Shown: piece after piece, positions 1,437-62,914 of the stretch
Layout: every line of letters begins with the position of its first letter
How positions within the stretch are numbered: position 1 is the first letter of the stretch
DNA from: Minisyncoccota bacterium
Lineage (GTDB): Bacteria > Patescibacteriota > Minisyncoccia > UBA6257 > GWB1-50-10
Assembly: GCA_020059915.1 (NCBI GenBank)
Contig: JAGVBB010000002.1
Coordinates: forward strand, 62,129-126,128
Direction of reading: 5' to 3'
Length of the DNA: 64,000 nt
The notes under the pieces: generated by a model
Seen by the model: the letters and a program-made list of their open reading frames with translations, nothing else
The model's database searches: none
Told to the model about the DNA's origin: nothing
Position numbers and translations under genes: made by a program

Positions 1437-4400
1437 TACTTCTTTTTCCTTACTGCTATCCAAATGGGGACTCCATCAATTTTTGTTTCAATCTCTACAT
1501 CAAAATGATTGCATTTACCCCAGACCAACTCTCTTGCATTCACGTCCTTCATACATTGATTTCTTTTCGATTCAATTATGCGTTGCAATTCATCCCCCAC
1601 CTCAATATGAATCACCACCTCGTCTTTTGGAGAAAGTTTTGCATCCTGGCGTAGGTCTTGAATGGTGCGTTGTAATTCACGAAGATATCCTTCTTCTTTA
1701 AGTTCCTGAGTGACATGAGTATCAAGAACAACCTCATCTTCCATGCTGGCATTAAATAAAACATCTTTGATATTTACCTCGTCCATAAGTATAGAGAGTA
1801 ACTCTGAATTTCCTTCCAAAAGCTTTGATTTCACAGTAATTGAGGCGAGTGGCTGTCTTACCTTAATTCCCGCCTCTGCGCGCTTTGCAAGGGCAATTGA
1901 CGCAATCCTGCGCACCTCTACCATGCCATCAACAAGTCCCTTATCACTTACATGGACAACTTTCGGCCATGCCTCAATATGGACCGATTCAAGCATTGAG
2001 GGAAACGATTTATATATTGCCTCTGAGAAAAATGGTGCAAACGGCGCCGTCAGCTTAGCGAGTGAAATCAGCATAGTGCCCAAAACATATGAAACAGCAT
2101 GGTAGTCATCTTTTGATTCTGGTTTTTGTAATCTCCTTCGAGAGCGTCTGATATACCACCTAGAAAGATCGTCCGCAAATGATTCAATAACGCGGGTGGC
2201 CTCCCCAACCTCATATGCATCCATATATGTTGTTGAGTCAATAATAACTTGATTAAGACGCTCTATAATCCATTTATCTAAAATATTATTTATTTTCGGC
2301 GCACTTTTCTTTTGAAGAACTTCCTTGTTTGCATATAGGTCAAAAAAAACAAATGAATTATATACGAGAGAGAAGAACTGTCGTGATACTTTCTGTAAAT
2401 CAAGTTCATCAAATTTCTTTGGTTCCCCAGGCGGATTTACTGTATAGAAGTACCACCTGATAACATCAGAACCATATTTTTGCATTACATCCCAAGGACT
2501 TACCACATTTCCTTTTGACTTTGACATTTTCTGTCCATTTTTATCAAGTACTAACCCCAATGAAATAACATTCTTAAATGGCGCCTCCTTCCCCAAAAGC
2601 GTAGAAACAGCCAACAGCGTGTAAAACCATCCCCTTGTCTGGTCGATGCCCTCAGAAATATAGTCCGCAGGAAATGGTAGTGTTTTTTTGTTTCCCTCAA
2701 ATGGATAGTGATATTGTGCAAAAGGCATCGCGCCGGAATCAAACCAAACATCGGCAACTTCAGGAATTCGTTTCATGGTATGCCCACAGGAATCACAAGA
2801 AAATTCAAATGAATCAATATATGGTCGATGGAGATCTAATGTTCCATTAATATCACGAGGGATCATTCTGTATTTTGTGATTTTCATCTTCCCCATGTTA
2901 ATAAACTCGCCATCCTCCTTATCGTGTTTCTCGGCCATTGCTTCCTCGTCACTCCATCCATTCATCACCCCATCAAGCGCCCAAAGCACATCTTCATGGC
3001 TTACTATAGCAATGGTTTTCCCAGAATATTTTTCATCTATTTCTTTTATTGCTGTATACACCCTCTTCCTCACATCAGAAATACTTTCTCCATTTGGTGT
3101 TTGTTTGGTAAATCGTTCTCTAAAGGAACCATAATAATTTGTGTACGATAACAAAGGGGAACCATTAAAATCACCAAAATCAATCTCCCGTAATCGCTCA
3201 TCGAAAATAATAGGCGCACCAGTATGTTCTTTTATAATTGCAGATGTTTCCTTGGTGCGAACCATATCGGAAGAAAAAATAAGATCAATTTTTTCTTTTT
3301 TTATTTTTTTACCAAGTTGCTCTATTTGTTTTTTCCCCTTCTCAGTAAGATGATACTTTGTCTTTTCCGGCCATGACGAAAGTGTGTTCGCTAAATTACT
3401 TTCCGATTCGCCATGACGAATAAGTATATACTTGTTATTTTTTGAAGGAACTTTCTTTTCTAATTCCTCAACACTACCAATAACGATTTTTTCTTTACAA
3501 TCACTACACTCCCATATAGGAAGTGGGGTCCCCCAATATCGCTCACGAGAAATTGCCCAATCTTTAACCTCTTTTATCCATTCCCCAAATCTCCCTGTTT
3601 GTAGATGATCTGGAATCCAATGTATGGTGTTATTTTCTTTTTTAAGGACATCTCTCAATGAACTCATTTCTATAAACCAAGAGTGCCTTCCATAATATAA
3701 AAGTGGAGTATTACAGCGCCAACAAAACGGATATTCATGTTTATATTGTTCCGTTCTTAAGAGAAGGTTTTTTTCCTCAAGTTTCTGTATTATTGCAGTT
3801 TCGGTTGTTTTTGTTTTTGCGTACATTCCAGCGAAATATGGAACATCATCAGAAAAAACTCCGGTCTCTTTTACTGTGTGTACTTCTGGAAGTCCTAATG
3901 ACCTTCCTAGTTGATAGTCATCTTCTCCGTACATCACCGCAGTATGCACAACACCAGTTCCATCTTCAGTGGTAACAAATCCTGCTGGATATACTTTGTA
4001 TGTAAGTGATTTTACAGAACCAGAAACAAACGCGGGAATTTCAAACAATGGTTCATAGGAAATAGTAACAAGATCCTTTCCAGTAACAGTTTTTAAGACA
4101 GTGTATTCTGTTCCATCAAGCACCGACAATCGTGATTCCGCAAGAATATAAATCTCTTTTTTCTTTGTATCTCCCACATCAACAATTACATATGGTATGT
4201 GCTCACCAACAGCAAGCGCAATGTTACCAGGGAGCGTCCACGGCGTGGTTGTCCAAGATAGAATAAATGTTTTTGTGTCTGCAACAAAATCTCCAATTTT
4301 TTCTCCCTTTTTTACTTTAAATTTTATATATACAGAAGTATCTTCAACTTCCTTATATCCCTGAGCAAGCTCATGAGAAGAGAGGGCGGTGCCACAACGA

Positions 4401-4945
4401 GTACACCACGGAACGATCTTGTGTCCCTTATAAAGAAGTTTCTTTTTGTGTATCTCTTTAAAAATCCACCATAGGGACTCCATATACTTATTTTCATAGG
4501 TAACATATGGGTCATCCATATCAAGCCAATAACCCATCCGCTCAGTAAGTTTTTCCCACTCATCTTTATATTTCCATACCGACTCCTTACACTTAGCATT
4601 AAATTCCATAACTCCGTACTCCTCAATTTCTTTTTTCGATTTAATTCCAAGTTGTTTTTCTACTTCTAATTCAACAGGGAGCCCATGTGTATCCCATCCT
4701 CCTTTTCTAGGAACTGAATATCCACGCATTGTCTTATACCGCAAAACAACATCCTTAAAAGAACGTGCAAGAACATGGTGAATTCCTGGTCTTCCATTTG
4801 CAGTTGGTGGACCCTCATAAAATATGAATTCTTTTTTTGTTCCTTTCTTTTTTAGCGTTTTTTCGAAAATGTGCTGATGTTTCCAAAACTCAAGTACTTT
4901 TTCTTCTATCTCTGGTAATGAGAATTGCTCTCCTTGTTTTAACAT
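1436..4945 (-). CDS. ileS: isoleucyl-tRNA synthetase (archaeal/eukaryotic-type) with an inserted histidine-phosphatase (PGM-like) domain
   Basis: PPTANGRPGIHH (HIGH), GWDTHGLP, KMSKSKGN, Zn-finger region ...DVWFDSG; aa ~505-700 carry RHGESESN...SSDMVRTKET...IVSHEDV, the histidine phosphatase superfamily signature. Confidence 0.85.
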   Translation of the reverse strand: MLKQGEQFSLPEIEEKVLEFWKHQHIFEKTLKKKGTKKEFIFYEGPPTANGRPGIHHVLARSFKDVVLRYKTMRGYSVPRKGGWDTHGLPVELEVEKQLGIKSKKEIEEYGVMEFNAKCKESVWKYKDEWEKLTERMGYWLDMDDPYVTYENKYMESLWWIFKEIHKKKLLYKGHKIVPWCTRCGTALSSHELAQGYKEVEDTSVYIKFKVKKGEKIGDFVADTKTFILSWTTTPWTLPGNIALAVGEHIPYVIVDVGDTKKKEIYILAESRLSVLDGTEYTVLKTVTGKDLVTISYEPLFEIPAFVSGSVKSLTYKVYPAGFVTTEDGTGVVHTAVMYGEDDYQLGRSLGLPEVHTVKETGVFSDDVPYFAGMYAKTKTTETAIIQKLEEKNLLLRTEQYKHEYPFCWRCNTPLLYYGRHSWFIEMSSLRDVLKKENNTIHWIPDHLQTGRFGEWIKEVKDWAISRERYWGTPLPIWECSDCKEKIVIGSVEELEKKVPSKNNKYILIRHGESESNLANTLSSWPEKTKYHLTEKGKKQIEQLGKKIKKEKIDLIFSSDMVRTKETSAIIKEHTGAPIIFDERLREIDFGDFNGSPLLSYTNYYGSFRERFTKQTPNGESISDVRKRVYTAIKEIDEKYSGKTIAIVSHEDVLWALDGVMNGWSDEEAMAEKHDKEDGEFINMGKMKITKYRMIPRDINGTLDLHRPYIDSFEFSCDSCGHTMKRIPEVADVWFDSGAMPFAQYHYPFEGNKKTLPFPADYISEGIDQTRGWFYTLLAVSTLLGKEAPFKNVISLGLVLDKNGQKMSKSKGNVVSPWDVMQKYGSDVIRWYFYTVNPPGEPKKFDELDLQKVSRQFFSLVYNSFVFFDLYANKEVLQKKSAPKINNILDKWIIERLNQVIIDSTTYMDAYEVGEATRVIESFADDLSRWYIRRSRRRLQKPESKDDYHAVSYVLGTMLISLAKLTAPFAPFFSEAIYKSFPSMLESVHIEAWPKVVHVSDKGLVDGMVEVRRIASIALAKRAEAGIKVRQPLASITVKSKLLEGNSELLSILMDEVNIKDVLFNASMEDEVVLDTHVTQELKEEGYLRELQRTIQDLRQDAKLSPKDEVVIHIEVGDELQRIIESKRNQCMKDVNARELVWGKCNHFDVEIETKIDGVPIWIAVRKKK

Positions 4946-5050: not shown

Positions 5051-5980
5051 ATGATAAATTTCTTAATTCTCGTCGCTATTGGTATATTATTTTATTTACT
5101 TTCAAAATCCGCTGATCTTGTTGTTGATTCTATAAAAAAAATTGGTTATACGTTTCATATACCCATACTATTCTTGGGATTTATATTAGGATTTTTTGCC
5201 TCCCTCCCAGAATTATCTATTGCAGTAAATACCTCTGTCCGTGATATAGGAGATCTGTCTCTTGGAAATCTTCTTGGGGGCATGTCGGTTCTGTTTGGTC
5301 TCATATTGGGAGTTTCTATTTTTTTATCTCGTCCAATATCAACAGACGGAAAATATACAACAATATTACCAATACTTGGTTATTCATTCCTCCCTTTTCT
5401 GTTTGGACTAAATGGAGAAATATCATTTTTCGAAGGAACATTTCTTATTGTCTCCTATGTCATTCTTATAATTTTTTTATTTAAAGAAACAAAACATATA
5501 GAACAAAAAGAAGTATACATACAACATAGCGCTCCGAAAAAACAAGTGGTATTTATTGTTGTTGGAATTGTTTCACTTCTTGTTGTTTCGAATATTATTA
5601 TCCGCCTTACCGAAACAATATTAGAATCTTATAACGTTCCCGCATTTTTTATTGGATTTTTATTATTTTCCATTGGCACAAATCTACCAGAAATTGCCAT
5701 ATCATTTCGTTCAATACGGAAACATGTTGCAGAACTTTCTCTTGCGAGCATCTTTGGATCTGTAATAGCAAATTCACTCATTGCAGGAATTTTATCCATT
5801 ATCAGACCCGTCCCTATAGAACATATAAGTTCTTATATTGTATTAACAGTATCAACAGGTATACTTCTGTTTTTTGTTCTTCGTTTTTATAAAACAGAAA
5901 AAAAGTTTTCAAAAAAAGAGGGCGTAATACTCGCCCTCTTATATGGAGGTATAGTTCTCTTACAAATTATATTTGTATAA
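5051..5980 (+). CDS. Ca2+/cation antiporter (CaCA family) membrane protein
   Basis: Multi-TM protein with two alpha-repeat motifs (GNLLGG...; GTNLPEIAISF) typical of Na+/Ca2+ exchanger YrbG-like proteins. Confidence 0.65.
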   Translation: MINFLILVAIGILFYLLSKSADLVVDSIKKIGYTFHIPILFLGFILGFFASLPELSIAVNTSVRDIGDLSLGNLLGGMSVLFGLILGVSIFLSRPISTDGKYTTILPILGYSFLPFLFGLNGEISFFEGTFLIVSYVILIIFLFKETKHIEQKEVYIQHSAPKKQVVFIVVGIVSLLVVSNIIIRLTETILESYNVPAFFIGFLLFSIGTNLPEIAISFRSIRKHVAELSLASIFGSVIANSLIAGILSIIRPVPIEHISSYIVLTVSTGILLFFVLRFYKTEKKFSKKEGVILALLYGGIVLLQIIFV

Positions 5981-7664: not shown

Positions 7665-8006
7665 TGGGGATGTTGGGCTTCGACAGAATACCAACCAATA
7701 TATGTGCAGGCGGAGCTTGTTACCTCCTAAATCTGACAACCAAATAATAACTGACAACCAAAGAGTTGCAGTCCCTGCATTTGCTTTCGCAGCATAACAG
7801 GGCACTCACCTAATTTATTGGTGGGCATCAGCACCTAATGTCTCATAGGGATCTGCTGGTGTTATATATGAGGCGCGCGCATGTTCGTTTTGAATCTTTC
7901 AAATATGTTGCGCTAATAAAAGATTCACCATTGTGTTTTTTACACTAAGCTTGTAGATCATATATAGGAAATATTTTGGACACCGGTTCAACTCCGGTCA
8001 TCTCCA
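7665..8006 (+). ncRNA. ssrA: tmRNA (SsrA)
   Basis: 5' GGGGAUGUUGGGCUUCGACAG and 3' GGACACCGGUUCAACUCCGGUCAUCUCCA form a tRNA-like acceptor and T-arm; internal tag ORF ...VAVPAFAFAA then UAA; TATAAT at 7641; the smpB partner is the next gene. Confidence 0.8.
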
Positions 8007-8102
8007 CAAAAACAAAGAGCGTCTGCACGACCCCAGTAGGTCATTTTGCTAAATGATATGTTTTTGTAGGATGCCGTATATAATTACGGCGCCACAAATA
8101 AA

Positions 8103-17222: not shown

Positions 17223-17223
17223 G

Positions 17224-17295
17224 TGCCCTTGGGTGGAATCGAACCACCACCACCTCCTTCGGAGGGAGATATTGTATCCATTCAACTACAAGGGC
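17224..17295 (-). tRNA. tRNA-Arg (anticodon CCG)
   Basis: Manual cloverleaf from the reverse complement: acceptor GCCCUUG/CAAGGGC, D-arm GUUG-AAUGGAUA-CAAU, anticodon stem UCUCC/GGAGG with loop CU-CCG-AA, T-arm GGUGG-UUCGAUU-CCACC, discriminator A; CCA not encoded. Confidence 0.75.
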
Positions 17296-24867: not shown

Positions 24868-26541
24868 ATGTTCAATAGCAAGCTACTTCAAGAACAACTT
24901 CAGAAAGCACGTCGTTTTGCGGAGGAAAATGATGCAAAACGCCGCGCGGTGCAGATTGGTGCTCCCTACCTTGATATCATTACTACACGCGTTCCTACAG
25001 AACTAAAAGCGATGAAACAGGTACAAGAAAATGAGGCAAGAAAAGCTCTTCTTGTTCCACTACACACCACAAAATCAAAAATTGTCATTGCAGCTTTTGA
25101 CCCACGTCTTCCAGAAACACACACTATTATTGAGAGATTAAAATCTGAAGGACTTCAGGTTGAAATTCGTATTGTGTCAAAACCAAGCTTGGAACATGGG
25201 TGGGGGTATTATAAATATGTTCCGGAGGACACAAAAGAAATTTCAGGAAAGGTTGATGTTAATGAAGAAAACCTTGGCATTATACTTGGTGCAGTAAAGA
25301 CACTCGGCGACCTTGAGGAACATCTCAAAAATTTTTCAAGCCCATTTGTGTCTCAGATGCTTGAAATTATTCTTGCGGGAGCAATGGCACTCAAGGCATC
25401 TGATATTCACTTGGAGCCAATTGATGAGGCGGGAGTTCTTCGTCTCCGTATTGATGGCATTCTTCATACGGTGTTTGATAAGTTTTCTCCTCATATTTAT
25501 AAATCAGTCATTACGCGTATAAAATTATTATCAAACCTCAAATTAAATATTGTTAACGAACCACAGGATGGGAGGTTTACTATTGGATTAAAAAATAGAG
25601 ACATAGAGGTTCGTACATCAATTATCCCTTCTGAATATGGGGAAACGGTTGTTATGCGTATATTGGATCCATCAGCACTTAAGGTAAATCTTGAAGACCT
25701 TGGCTGGAGAAAAGATGATCTTGCAATAATCAAGGAGGTTATCAACCAACCAAATGGGCTTATTTTAAATACTGGGCCAACAGGATCAGGAAAAACCACA
25801 ACACTATATGCGTTTCTTAAAAGTGTGCGGTCTTCGGAAATAAAAATAATAACCGTAGAAGATCCTATTGAATATCACCTTGAAGGCGTATCACAAACAC
25901 AAGTAAATTCAAATGCAAATTATACATTTGCATCTGGACTTCGTTCCATTCTCCGACAAGATCCTGATGTTATTCTTATTGGAGAAATTCGTGATCAAGA
26001 AACAGCAGAAATTGCACTAGAGTCATCACTCACTGGACACCTTGTATTTTCAACACTCCACACGAACGACGCTATTGGAGCAATTCCCCGATTTCTTGAC
26101 TTGGGGGCAAAACCGAATATTTTAGGGCCGGCACTCACATTAGTAATAGCCCAACGACTTGTTCGTGTTTTATGCAAAGAATGTAGAGAAAAAATTGAAC
26201 CTACAAAGGAATTAACATCCACCATTTCTCAATTTATAAACAAACTTCCTAATAGGATTGATAAGTCTGCATATACAAACATTGAAATGTATTCTGCAAA
26301 AGGGTGCCCCTCCTGTGCAGGATTGGGATATCACGGACGCGTTTCAATATTTGAATTATTTCTTGTTAATAATGATATAAAAGAATTAATTTATAAAAAT
26401 CCAACAGAAATGCAATTATTTACATCAGCAAGGTCTCAAGGAATGGTCACCATGCAAGAGGACGGTCTCTTGAAAGTTCTTCAAGGTATTACAACTACAG
26501 ACGAAGTTGAACGAGCAACAGGAACAATAAAGTGGGAGTAG
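24868..26541 (+). CDS. type IV pilus assembly / type II secretion ATPase (PilB/GspE family)
   Basis: Walker A GPTGSGKTTT, Asp box, His box, C-terminal tetra-Cys motif (CKEC...GCPSCAG). Confidence 0.85.
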   Translation: MFNSKLLQEQLQKARRFAEENDAKRRAVQIGAPYLDIITTRVPTELKAMKQVQENEARKALLVPLHTTKSKIVIAAFDPRLPETHTIIERLKSEGLQVEIRIVSKPSLEHGWGYYKYVPEDTKEISGKVDVNEENLGIILGAVKTLGDLEEHLKNFSSPFVSQMLEIILAGAMALKASDIHLEPIDEAGVLRLRIDGILHTVFDKFSPHIYKSVITRIKLLSNLKLNIVNEPQDGRFTIGLKNRDIEVRTSIIPSEYGETVVMRILDPSALKVNLEDLGWRKDDLAIIKEVINQPNGLILNTGPTGSGKTTTLYAFLKSVRSSEIKIITVEDPIEYHLEGVSQTQVNSNANYTFASGLRSILRQDPDVILIGEIRDQETAEIALESSLTGHLVFSTLHTNDAIGAIPRFLDLGAKPNILGPALTLVIAQRLVRVLCKECREKIEPTKELTSTISQFINKLPNRIDKSAYTNIEMYSAKGCPSCAGLGYHGRVSIFELFLVNNDIKELIYKNPTEMQLFTSARSQGMVTMQEDGLLKVLQGITTTDEVERATGTIKWE

Positions 26542-26582
26542 TTCTTAAAAAATAACCACCCCTCTTTGATATATAAAATAAA

Positions 26583-26610
26583 CCCCGCCAGTCTTCTATA
26601 GACTGGCGGG
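26583..26610 (-). terminator. intrinsic terminator, oriented for the minus strand
   Basis: ccccgccagtcttctatagactggcggg; the U-tract is only on the minus-strand side. Confidence 0.55.
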
Positions 26611-26611
26611 A

Positions 26612-26790
26612 TTCGTTCACTAGGGTCTGTGGGCAGCACGCCGTTAGGCTTGTTTTAAAAACCTCCCTCAATGAGCTTGAGAAAGGACCGAATGTTTCCG
26701 AGGAGTTCTCCAGCCGAAACCAAAGAGTCCTTTAAAATAGTTTAAGAAATGCATCCGTTTGCCCACAGACCTTAATGAACGATGTTAAAA
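26612..26790 (-). ncRNA. candidate small RNA (unknown class)
   Basis: ~180-nt ORF-free segment; 12-bp long-range helix ggtctgtgggca(26624..26635)/tgcccacagacc(26760..26771) enclosing internal helices (aaaggac/gtccttt); on the minus strand preceded by TTGACA-17nt-TGcTAGTAT promoter-like elements (~26795..26830) and followed by the terminator above. Confidence 0.3.
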
Positions 26791-26956
26791 TACTAGCACA
26801 CAAATATAAATTTGTCAATACCAGGAAACGTGCCTACTATGTATATAGCACTCTTTTACATGTGTCAATGCCTATAAAATATAGAAAAAATCAACACTTT
26901 TCCCCCACCTCGTATTCCCAATAATTCTTATTTATCATATAGTTATAGTAGACTAC

Positions 26957-27961
26957 ATGGAAAAAGATATAGAAAAAAAGGATGGAATTGATGGAAATTT
27001 TGATGCGGCACTCCGTCCTTCACGCTGGGATGAATATATTGGGCAAGATACAACAAAAAAAAATTTGCGTTTAATTCTTGATGCCGCAAAAGAACGAGGT
27101 GAAGCACCAGACCATATATTATTTTATGGACAACCGGGACTTGGAAAAACAACGCTCGCATACCTCATTGCAAAAGAATTAAATACACAAATAAAATCCA
27201 CATCTGGTCCCGCATTAGAAAAAGCAGGAGATGTTGCTGCACTCCTTACAAATCTTGAACCACACGATATTCTTTTTATTGATGAGGCACACAGGGTAAA
27301 TACTGCGATAGAAGAAATATTATATCCCGCAATGGAATCAAGAAAAATACACATTATTCTTGGTAAGGGCCCATCTGCAAGAACATTTTCCCTAGACCTT
27401 CCCCCCTTTACTATTGTTGCCGCGACAACACGAGCAAACCTCCTTTCCGCTCCATTGCGATCTCGATTTGGCGCAACATTTCGTTTGGATTATTACAACG
27501 CACAAGATATACAAAAAATTATTAATCGTTCTGCAAAAATACTTAACATATCAATTGAGTCATCGGCCGCCGAAAAACTCTCACATGCAGCGCGTTTTAC
27601 TCCAAGAACCGCAAACCGTCTTTTGAAGCGCGCACGGGATTATGCGCAAATGTATAGTAATAACAATATTAATATTGATGCGGTATATAAAACATTAGAA
27701 CTTTTGGAGATTGATGAGTTGGGCCTCGATAAAACAGACAGAGAAATATTATCTGTTATTATCCAAAAATTTAATGGCGGTCCCGTTGGACTTAAATCAC
27801 TTGGTGCCGCAATAAACGAAGAACCAGGAACTATAGAGGATGTATATGAGCCATATCTAATAAAAATTGGTTTGTTACACCGAACGCCCTCTGGAAGAGT
27901 TGTGACAAAACTTGCACACCAACATCTTGGTATCTCTGATAGTGGGCTAGATTTATTATAA
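26957..27961 (+). CDS. ruvB: Holliday junction DNA helicase RuvB
   Basis: AAA+ Walker A GQPGLGKTTLA, Walker B, sensor motifs and winged-helix C-terminus. Confidence 0.9.
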   Translation: MEKDIEKKDGIDGNFDAALRPSRWDEYIGQDTTKKNLRLILDAAKERGEAPDHILFYGQPGLGKTTLAYLIAKELNTQIKSTSGPALEKAGDVAALLTNLEPHDILFIDEAHRVNTAIEEILYPAMESRKIHIILGKGPSARTFSLDLPPFTIVAATTRANLLSAPLRSRFGATFRLDYYNAQDIQKIINRSAKILNISIESSAAEKLSHAARFTPRTANRLLKRARDYAQMYSNNNINIDAVYKTLELLEIDELGLDKTDREILSVIIQKFNGGPVGLKSLGAAINEEPGTIEDVYEPYLIKIGLLHRTPSGRVVTKLAHQHLGISDSGLDLL

Positions 27962-62036: not shown

Positions 62037-62914
62037 CAGAGCGAGTAGTTGGAGAATATCTTGATTATTTAGAGATTGAAAAAAATCGATCTCCAAAAAC
62101 ACGGGAAAACTATGGGCGATATCTTTTTCGATTTTTAAAAGATCAACAAATAAAAAAGATATTGGATATTACTGATACATCAGTGCGAAGTTTTCGTGTC
62201 CACTTATCGAGAGAAAATACTAAAAAAGTTACTCAAAGCTATTATGTAATTGCAATCAGGAATTTTTTAAAATATTGCATAAAACGAGGAATGAAAGTGC
62301 TTTCCCCAGAAACGATAGAGCTTCCAAAAATAGCACGCAGGGATATTGAGGTATTGGACTATAGTGAGTTAGAACGATTATTGAAGGCGCCAGAAGGAAA
62401 CTCCTTGCGCGCATTGAGAGATAGGGCAATTCTCGAGATGTTGTTTTCAACGGGATTGCGCGTTTCAGAGCTTTGTTCTTTGAATAGATATATTGATATT
62501 AACCGCGGAGAATTTTCTGTTAGAGGAAAAGGAGAAAAGTTGCGTGTAGTGTTTATCTCTGATTCTGCAAAAAAAAATTTAAAAGAATATCTTGATAAGC
62601 GTCCCGATGCAGAAGAAGCACTATTTATTTCTCTCTCAAAATCGGGAAATGTAACAGGGCGCATTATTCCTCGTGGGGTTCAACGATTAGTTGATTTTTA
62701 TGCACGAAAAGCAGGTATATCAAAAAAAGTACATCCACATCAATTACGGCATTCTTTTGCCACAGATTTACTTATTAATGGAGCAGATCTTCGATCGGTG
62801 CAGGAAATGTTGGGTCATGCAAATATTGCCACTACACAGGTATATACTCATCTTACCAATAAAGAACTTCATGAAGTTCATGAGGCATTTCATGGAAGAC
62901 GGAGAAAAAAATAA
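62037..62914 (+). CDS. tyrosine recombinase XerC/XerD family
   Basis: C-terminal catalytic motifs RHSFAT...LGH...TTQVYTHL (R-H-R-Y); start set at the internal Met (MNEAERVVGEYLDYLE...). Confidence 0.8.

Follow-up and report, generated by a model that had tools for sequence, protein, structure and literature searches.

The spacer between pilB and ruvB that we describe here lies within a 64,000-nt stretch (the window, to which all unprefixed coordinates refer) of contig JAGVBB010000002.1 from a Minisyncoccota bacterium (GenBank assembly GCA_020059915.1, forward-strand positions 62,129 to 126,128). It measures 415 bp (26542-26956) and separates the gene for a PilB/GspE-type T2SSE ATPase (24868-26541, plus strand) from ruvB (26957-27961, plus strand), which is followed by tsaE and polA. 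A first-pass annotation made from the letters alone had proposed that this spacer encodes an autonomous small RNA (sRNA) on the minus strand, composed of a promoter, a structured body and a terminator of its own, and our comparative analysis bears out this organization. The element is almost certainly a real structured RNA gene and the founding example of a new family that is absent from Rfam 15. It is convergent with pilB and divergent from ruvB, and it has what is generally expected of an independent sRNA gene: its own promoter, a non-coding body, an intrinsic terminator and conservation in relatives.

The promoter of the RNA consists of a -35 hexamer TTGACA (26813-26818, minus strand) spaced by 17 nt from an extended -10 element TGcTAGTAT (26790-26798, minus strand), exactly as first annotated. 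With a score of 10/12 and an extended -10, this is the top site of the region; TGNTAGTAT / TGNTAnnnT is kept in homologues, and the arrangement TTGACA-17-(TGn)TAnnnT is found upstream of the RNA in 16 of the 20 homologues described below. Judging from the usual 6-8 nt distance to the -10 element, transcription is predicted to start at about A26783 (26782-26786, minus strand), flush with the base of the helix that closes the RNA (P1). At the other end, the rho-independent terminator with a U-tract on the minus strand only is likewise present (26570-26614, minus strand): a stem-loop (26614-26580) with 15 pairs, 8 of them G-C, is followed by a U-rich tail (ATTTTATATA, minus strand only). From about 26783 to about 26572, the predicted transcript would therefore measure about 210 nt, terminator included, of which about 170 nt make up the conserved core. 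A separate terminator hairpin occupies the same place in the window and in three close relatives (L082, L084 and L085), its sequence differing between members, while in L086, L088, L090 and L094 the 3' strand of P1 runs directly into the U-tract and P1 itself therefore terminates transcription. Ahead of the RNA promoter by about 45 nt (26842-26868, minus strand) there is a second TTGACA...TATATA pair, which is kept in the four closest relatives (window, L082, L084 and L085); it was missed by the consensus scan because its spacing is about 15 nt, and it may represent a tandem promoter or some other binding site.

The minus-strand sequence folds strongly (26583-26790, -92.9 kcal/mol, z = -9.25 versus 200 dinucleotide shuffles), in line with the folding check that had been suggested for it, and the plus strand of the same single sequence folds nearly as well (z = -8.86). 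In so AT-rich a spacer, moreover, promoter-like matches (6 found versus 3.1 expected) and terminator-like matches (2 versus 1.1) taken alone are not above chance. Because the plus strand folds almost equally and such matches are not rare, the case for an RNA gene rests on the comparative data.

In the window and its close relatives (the window subfamily), the fold is supported as a four-way junction that is closed by P1 and from which a P2 arm, a P3 hairpin and a P4 mini-hairpin emanate. P1 pairs a 5' strand at 26760-26782 (tcgttcattaaggtctgtgggca) with a 3' strand at 26613-26635 (tgcccacagaccctagtgaacga), both on the minus strand as are all elements of the RNA; its arms of 23 nt are 91% complementary and form 22 pairs in the structure. 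The perfect 12-bp long-range helix noted at the outset is part of P1, which extends it outward. The P2 arm (69 nt, 26689-26757) is built from P2a (CGGAUG/CAUUCG), P2a' (UUUCU/GGAAA), an internal loop with 13 nt on the 5' side opposite one C, an invariant P2b helix (AGGA/UCCU) and an apical P2c hairpin (UCUUUGGU-UUCG-GCUGGAGA) that is rich in G.U and whose tandem G.U pairs are conserved. Among the fetched loci, the P2 motif GGTTTCGRCTGG..CTCCTCGGA occurs only at the RNA site. P3 (26662-26686; CCUUUCUCAA-GCUCA-UUGAGGGAGG, 10 bp) is followed by a run of five U (26657-26661) and by the U/A-rich linker J3/4 (26650-26661; UUUUUAAAACAA), which is unpaired in both the minimum-free-energy and the consensus structures and is kept in the close subfamily. 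P4 (26640-26649) has the sequence GCC-UAAC-GGC. Short linkers join these elements in the window subfamily: AA between P1 and P2, GU between P2 and P3, and GUGC between P4 and P1.

Two further features of this fold are worth noting. First, P3 together with its U5 run scores as an intrinsic terminator, and a hairpin with a U-run recurs at the P3 position in most close members, though not in those of the L008/L019 type; it could yield a shorter isoform or serve as a protein-binding site. Second, AAAGGAC (26725-26731, minus strand) is able to pair with GUCCUUU at the start of P3 (26682-26688, minus strand) as an alternative to P2b. As both partners are invariant, covariation cannot choose between the two pairings, and a conformational switch between them is conceivable. 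A search among the unpaired columns for pseudoknots or extra helices gave none of at least 4 bp that was consistent across members.

Homologues of the RNA were reached through the neighbouring proteins and then through models of the RNA itself. RuvB proved a poor probe for close relatives because it is too conserved: queried against GTDB species representatives, it gave a best match of 61% identity, with top matches mostly from Patescibacteria metagenome-assembled genomes (MAGs). PilB used as query in a metagenome scan retrieved L082, a 746-kb contig with 81% PilB identity, and a PilB protein search returned graded relatives (60-98% identity) carrying the names Parcubacteria LiPW_41, Jorgensenbacteria, Brennerbacteria and Paceibacterota. 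The gene order ruvA - rpsT - hypothetical gene(s) - pilB - spacer - ruvB - tsaE - polA was found in all eight PilB-relative contigs that were fetched, with spacers of 197-390 bp, and every spacer of these eight contigs and of L082 holds a homologue of the RNA on the strand opposite to pilB and ruvB. The window sequence itself is also present, identically, in JGI metagenome 3300007351 (L001). In a Yanofskybacteria MAG (L044), a nucleotide profile search (nhmmer) located the element likewise upstream of ruvB. Two covariance models, R1 built from 7 members and then R2 from 10, recovered L082, the fetched PilB-relative members and L044 at 67-193 bits. With filters off, R2 additionally gave a match of 160-190 nt in the corresponding position and orientation, directly upstream of ruvB, in L008, L006, L014, L019, L028, L002, L004 and L007, and R1 gave the same match in L043.

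Altogether, RNA homologues on the opposite strand were found at 20 loci from diverse Patescibacteria/Parcubacteria MAGs (L082; the L084-L094 series; L044; L002, L004, L006, L007, L008, L014, L019 and L028; and L043). A pilB-type neighbour is common to all homologous loci checked. For the eight loci recovered with filters off, Pfam identified an upstream PilB-type ATPase in seven, the eighth (L007) having a 555-aa upstream open reading frame (ORF). A 557-aa ORF lies upstream of the RNA in L044, and L004 has an extra 203-aa ORF between pilB and the RNA. The region upstream of ruvB gave no match in L003 (Parcubacteria), L023 (Doudnabacteria) or loci from outside the candidate phyla radiation (CPR). 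The suspicion that the element might be a lineage-specific sRNA thus gave way to an RNA that occurs at a fixed syntenic site across many Patescibacteria/Parcubacteria lineages. In L008, a second, weaker covariance-model match lies downstream of ruvB (5498-5627; 23.5 and 21.6 bits on the two strands); it probably represents a long palindromic hairpin rather than another copy of the RNA. The RNAs of L002 (titled 'Paceibacterota') and L004 ('Saccharibacteria') are nearly identical, and L043, titled Bdellovibrionales, has the same RNA and promoter. PilB of L014 and L019, two loci titled Saccharibacteria, has relatives named Paceibacterota, Patescibacteria or Nealsonbacteria, so that presence of the RNA in true Saccharibacteria is not established by these two loci.

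Covariation and synteny, the comparative checks suggested for the candidate, both speak for the RNA. In a MAFFT alignment of 7 members, 95.7% of the cells that should pair do so and 13 pairs are changed on both sides, versus 0-4 in slid controls (observed values reached in at most 1 of 500 shuffles). In a model-made alignment of 10 members, 93.8% of these cells are paired and 30 of 57 pairs are changed on both sides, versus 10-13 in slid controls (observed values reached in 0 of 500 shuffles). These 30 changes are spread over all helices: 12 fall in P1, 6 (of 11 pairs) in P2a/a', 5 (of 12) in P2b/c, 6 (of 9) in P3 and 1 in P4. P3 is paired in 96.5% of its cells in the same alignment, and the P4 stem GCC/GGC is replaced by GUC/GAC in L093 and by CCA/UGG in L094. 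When P1 was compared over 14 diverse members, 95% of its cells were paired and 19 of its 22 pairs were changed on both sides; seven P1 pairs are invariant among the 10 members of one alignment (A6).

Distant homologues folded singly each present a closing helix of 21-30 bp around a three- or four-way junction. What the family has in common is a long P1 with a conserved (A/G)UCU...AGAU core, an arm of the form AGGA..[hairpin YUGG...CUGG]..UCCU and, usually, P3. Variations on this plan include an extra P1/P2 hairpin and no P4 in L044 (2634-2804), L007 (2747-2916), L008 (2666-2837) and L028 (2737-2904), all on the minus strand, 14-25 apparently unpaired nt between P1 and P2 in L002, L004 and L019, and a much longer P2 apex in L014 and L028; P4 is missing from some distant members.

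The alignments also identify the strand under selection. Among the paired cells, 83 are G.U and 12 are A.C, and because G.U so outnumbers A.C the minus strand is the folded strand; this ratio, along with the position of the promoter and of the U-tract, rules out the plus strand as the functional one. At the DNA level, the RNA core is more conserved than the flanking genes. Between the window and L082 it is 85% identical (pilB 74%, ruvB 75%, rest of the spacer 43%), between the window and L085 again 85% (pilB 72.5%, ruvB 75%, rest of the spacer 40%) and between the window and L090 67% (pilB 56%, ruvB 63%, rest of the spacer 14%).

These data leave next to no probability for the notion, now largely refuted, that the element is not an RNA gene at all, be it a DNA inverted repeat, a plain terminator of pilB or a small protein gene. 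One could invoke for it that both strands of a single sequence fold equally well and that four mechanical ORFs of 32-58 aa overlap the region. The compensatory changes, however, maintain pairing and show a G.U bias in favour of one strand, the upstream promoter is conserved and the interior helices would be needless for a terminator. As to coding potential, the size of the spacer and the lack of a conserved ORF agree with the original description of an ORF-less 415-bp spacer, the mechanical ORFs being the part of it that did not hold. No reading frame is conserved across members, with stops in nearly every frame, and tblastn searches with the 32-aa mechanical ORF gave only frameshifted pieces that track nucleotide conservation, so a plus-strand small ORF with homologues, which would have spoken against the RNA, was not borne out and a small protein gene was rejected.

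The close apposition to ruvB raises the question of a role in cis. In the window, a TATAGT hexamer lies 13 nt before the ruvB ATG, which has no Shine-Dalgarno sequence (26934-26959, plus strand), and this layout suggests a leaderless or very-short-leader ruvB mRNA. The -35 hexamer of the RNA overlaps the annotated ruvB start codon in L094 (about 4345-4380) and abuts it in L091 (about 4362-4403); in these two loci the two divergent promoters must therefore overlap. Such an arrangement could mean that minus-strand promoter activity or antisense transcription controls ruvB or read-through from pilB into ruvB, by occlusion, interference or antisense action, with P1 as a bidirectional terminator. 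Beside the promoter geometry just described, the position divergent from ruvB in 20 of 20 loci and a plus-strand copy of P1 followed by a short U-run in L090 fit this scheme. Yet a junction that is conserved and whose P2, P3 and P4 covary would be superfluous for interference or termination. The G.U to A.C ratio of 83:12 reveals selection on the fold of the minus-strand RNA, and the part of the spacer next to the promoter shows little conservation outside the RNA. We therefore regard control in cis as very unlikely to be what the element is for. A riboswitch or other cis-acting leader was ruled out separately: the RNA is neither because its terminator ends it and no gene follows on the same strand, the next minus-strand sequence being the antisense of the pilB 3' end, and no Rfam riboswitch matches. 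It would be tempting to connect a four-way-junction RNA beside ruvB with the RuvAB Holliday-junction machinery, but we consider action on that machinery extremely improbable. A retron msr-msd RNA was also ruled out, as the locus is vertically inherited at one site and has no reverse transcriptase among its neighbours. In the window and the eight fetched contigs, the nearby genes (pilB, ruvB, tsaE, polA, ruvA and rpsT) include no reverse transcriptase, transposase or Cas gene.

Our best overall explanation, held with moderate confidence, is that the element specifies an independently transcribed non-coding RNA that acts through its fold and is likely protein-bound. A near-consensus sigma-70 promoter with an extended -10 would start transcription at the foot of P1 (22-23 bp), P1 would close the multi-helix junction with the P2 arm, P3 and P4, and the intrinsic terminator would end the transcript. 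The resulting stable RNA would then act via its three-dimensional fold and most probably bind a conserved protein, either as a component of a ribonucleoprotein (RNP) or as a protein decoy.

On balance, we favour such a role in fold and protein binding for several reasons. First, the invariant bases sit in helices and in the junction while other pairs covary. Second, all members retain a P1 of 21-30 bp, far longer than closure of a junction needs. Third, the members share no long single-stranded seed across the family, and there is no ORF and no downstream gene. Fourth, over a deep radiation the RNA is better conserved than the essential genes beside it. Features of this kind characterize RNP RNAs and protein decoys and are unusual for base-pairing sRNAs, and the pattern suggests that the RNA is neither a base-pairing sRNA nor a cis-regulator. 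With at least 22 bp, a helix like P1 is moreover a classic substrate of RNase III; P1 being long enough for this enzyme, the mature RNA may be trimmed.

Several points weigh against this explanation or restrict it. Alignments derived from a covariance model are biased toward the structure of the model, although the count from the MAFFT alignment and the independent single-sequence folds agree with the model-made alignment. In the 14-member comparison the most distant members align poorly in their interior, which leaves P1 and the AGGA..UCCU arm as the only parts that can be claimed for the whole family. Both transcript ends are predictions from sequence signals, and protein binding is argued from the pattern of conservation. 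Since MAG titles are unreliable, the exact taxonomic breadth is uncertain and we state the range as many Patescibacteria/Parcubacteria lineages, not as every CPR phylum. Lastly, the close subfamily conserves two stretches that are predicted to be unpaired, UUCUUARAC and GUUUUUAAAAC, and these leave some room for a base-pairing role.

A trans-acting base-pairing sRNA, in which the 13-nt internal loop and the J3/4 linker would pair with mRNAs, could draw on these two stretches and on the independence of the unit, with its own promoter and intrinsic terminator. Distant members do not share these stretches but do retain helices P1 and P2b. So broadly conserved and so highly structured an RNA would be unusual among base-pairing sRNAs as generally known, and no target has come to light for it. 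Regulation by base-pairing is hence distinctly unlikely.

Stable structured small RNAs that have a promoter and a terminator of their own are a familiar kind, and the protein-bound RNA that we favour would be one of them; its family and its architecture are new, and its partner is probably new too. We tentatively entertain, at a little below even chances, the more specific proposal of a CPR-specific class of housekeeping RNA that acts as subunit or decoy of a conserved protein and resides at an ancestral pilB / RNA / ruvB locus, retained there while the Parcubacteria diversified and perhaps more widely, as opposed to a divergent 6S, SRP or other known RNA. A near-consensus promoter, heavy covariation, a fixed address and conservation above that of the neighbours fit the profile of a core cellular component. 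A large part of bacterial diversity belongs to the Patescibacteria, whose tiny genomes have few recognizable regulators, and to our knowledge almost nothing is known about the non-coding RNAs of these bacteria. The RNA may, in an unorthodox shape, occupy a 6S niche that otherwise looks empty, or it may mark an RNP that has so far escaped notice. The family provides a covariance model for the annotation of MAGs, a probe for metatranscriptomes and a bait for pull-down experiments, and it merits an entry in RNA family databases.

Searches against known families set the RNA apart, as the first-pass annotation had surmised on failing to match it by eye. The 4227 families of Rfam 15 were scanned over the whole window at gathering score, over 26500-27000 at E<=10 and over nine homologous loci at E<=0.5. 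At gathering score, the window yielded a tmRNA and a tRNA elsewhere and nothing at the RNA; no 6S, SRP, RNase P or riboswitch appeared in 26500-27000 even at E<=10, and nothing matched the RNA position in the nine homologous loci at E<=0.5. Weak matches to the sRNA families P37, ncr1175, RybB and CopA cover the terminator hairpin alone and were dismissed as terminator look-alikes. ARAGORN reported no tRNA- or tmRNA-like gene in 26400-27000, a scan of IMG/VR viral contigs for the P2 motif gave no match, and the literature in PubMed Central (PMC) and bioRxiv returned no description of this RNA or of any small RNA from the CPR, 6S RNA included. The two known RNA genes of the window are a tmRNA gene (7666-8009, plus strand; Rfam 115.7 bits) whose tag peptide is DNQRVAVPAFAFAA according to ARAGORN, and a tRNA-Arg(CCG) gene (17223-17295, minus strand), the sole tRNA in the 64 kb. 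A resemblance of 'GGGCAAAC' in P1/J to the c-di-GMP-I riboswitch was dropped, as the model gave no match and the motif is not family-wide, and one of P2 to SRP domain IV was dropped on the same two grounds.

Two classical housekeeping RNAs deserve closer comparison, the candidate having been described as 6S/SRP-like in size; the size agrees, but the fold is a four-way junction and not a rod with a central bubble. 6S RNAs are rod-shaped, with a central bubble that is largely unpaired on both strands between closing and apical arms (PMC8876501). A Patescibacterial counterpart of 6S RNA (ssrS; RF00013 and relatives) would mimic an open promoter, bind the sigma-A RNA polymerase holoenzyme and be released by synthesis of a short product RNA (pRNA). 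Length (about 170-210 nt), a strong housekeeping-type (sigma-70-type) promoter and broad vertical conservation far beyond that of a typical sRNA are all in keeping with such a counterpart. So are the two arms, namely a long closing helix in which the 5' end pairs with the 3' end and a second arm of about 70 nt, and the hairpins and single strands on the 3' side of the junction, which recall the 3' central-bubble hairpin of free B. subtilis 6S-1 RNA (PMC8876501). Members of the L002/L004/L019 type even offer 14-25 unpaired nt between P1 and P2, on the 5' side, so that the contrast with a 6S bubble is less clear-cut for them. No canonical 6S RNA was found in the 64-kb window or in 9 related loci, a weak argument as whole genomes were not scanned.

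By contrast, the Rfam 6S models stayed silent at E<=10 on the 500-nt region and at E<=0.5 on the nine loci. In the window subfamily, only 2 nt (AA) separate P1 from P2a, which has compensatory changes, and because this covariation-supported helix follows directly after P1 there is no open 5' central bubble that could act as template. Moreover, the RNA forms a four-way junction in place of a rod, and its P1 is nearly perfect whereas the arms of 6S RNA are interrupted by loops and bulges (PMC8876501). Membership in the 6S family is thus not supported, and a 6S counterpart is unlikely, even if a 6S-like polymerase decoy ranks first among the specific roles considered.

The small SRP RNA (4.5S, ffs) resembles the RNA in being hairpin-like with ends paired in a long helix, and P2 is reminiscent of SRP domain IV in its asymmetric loop (long on the 5' side, 1 nt on the 3' side), 4-bp helix, small internal loop and apical tetraloop. 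However, the GNRA tetraloop, the AGG/AGCA symmetric loop and the AGCA/GGAA motifs of SRP RNA are missing from the sequence, no SRP model matched at E<=10 and, unlike SRP helix 8, the apical part of the RNA varies in length among members. Orphan structured bacterial RNAs that emerged from comparative genomics, such as raiA and OLE, differ in that no Rfam model of these families matches and that the RNA is so far confined to Patescibacteria and has its own architecture; they are alike in their strong covariation, conserved synteny, lack of a known ligand or partner, and discovery through intergenic conservation. A further parallel is Ms1, an RNA of Actinobacteria that binds the RNA polymerase core (PMC4191392, PMC9130861). 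Ms1 is about 300 nt long and restricted to Actinobacteria, and it compares with the RNA, by analogy only, as a phylum-level structured RNA of 6S size or larger that was missed by standard 6S models and traced via synteny.

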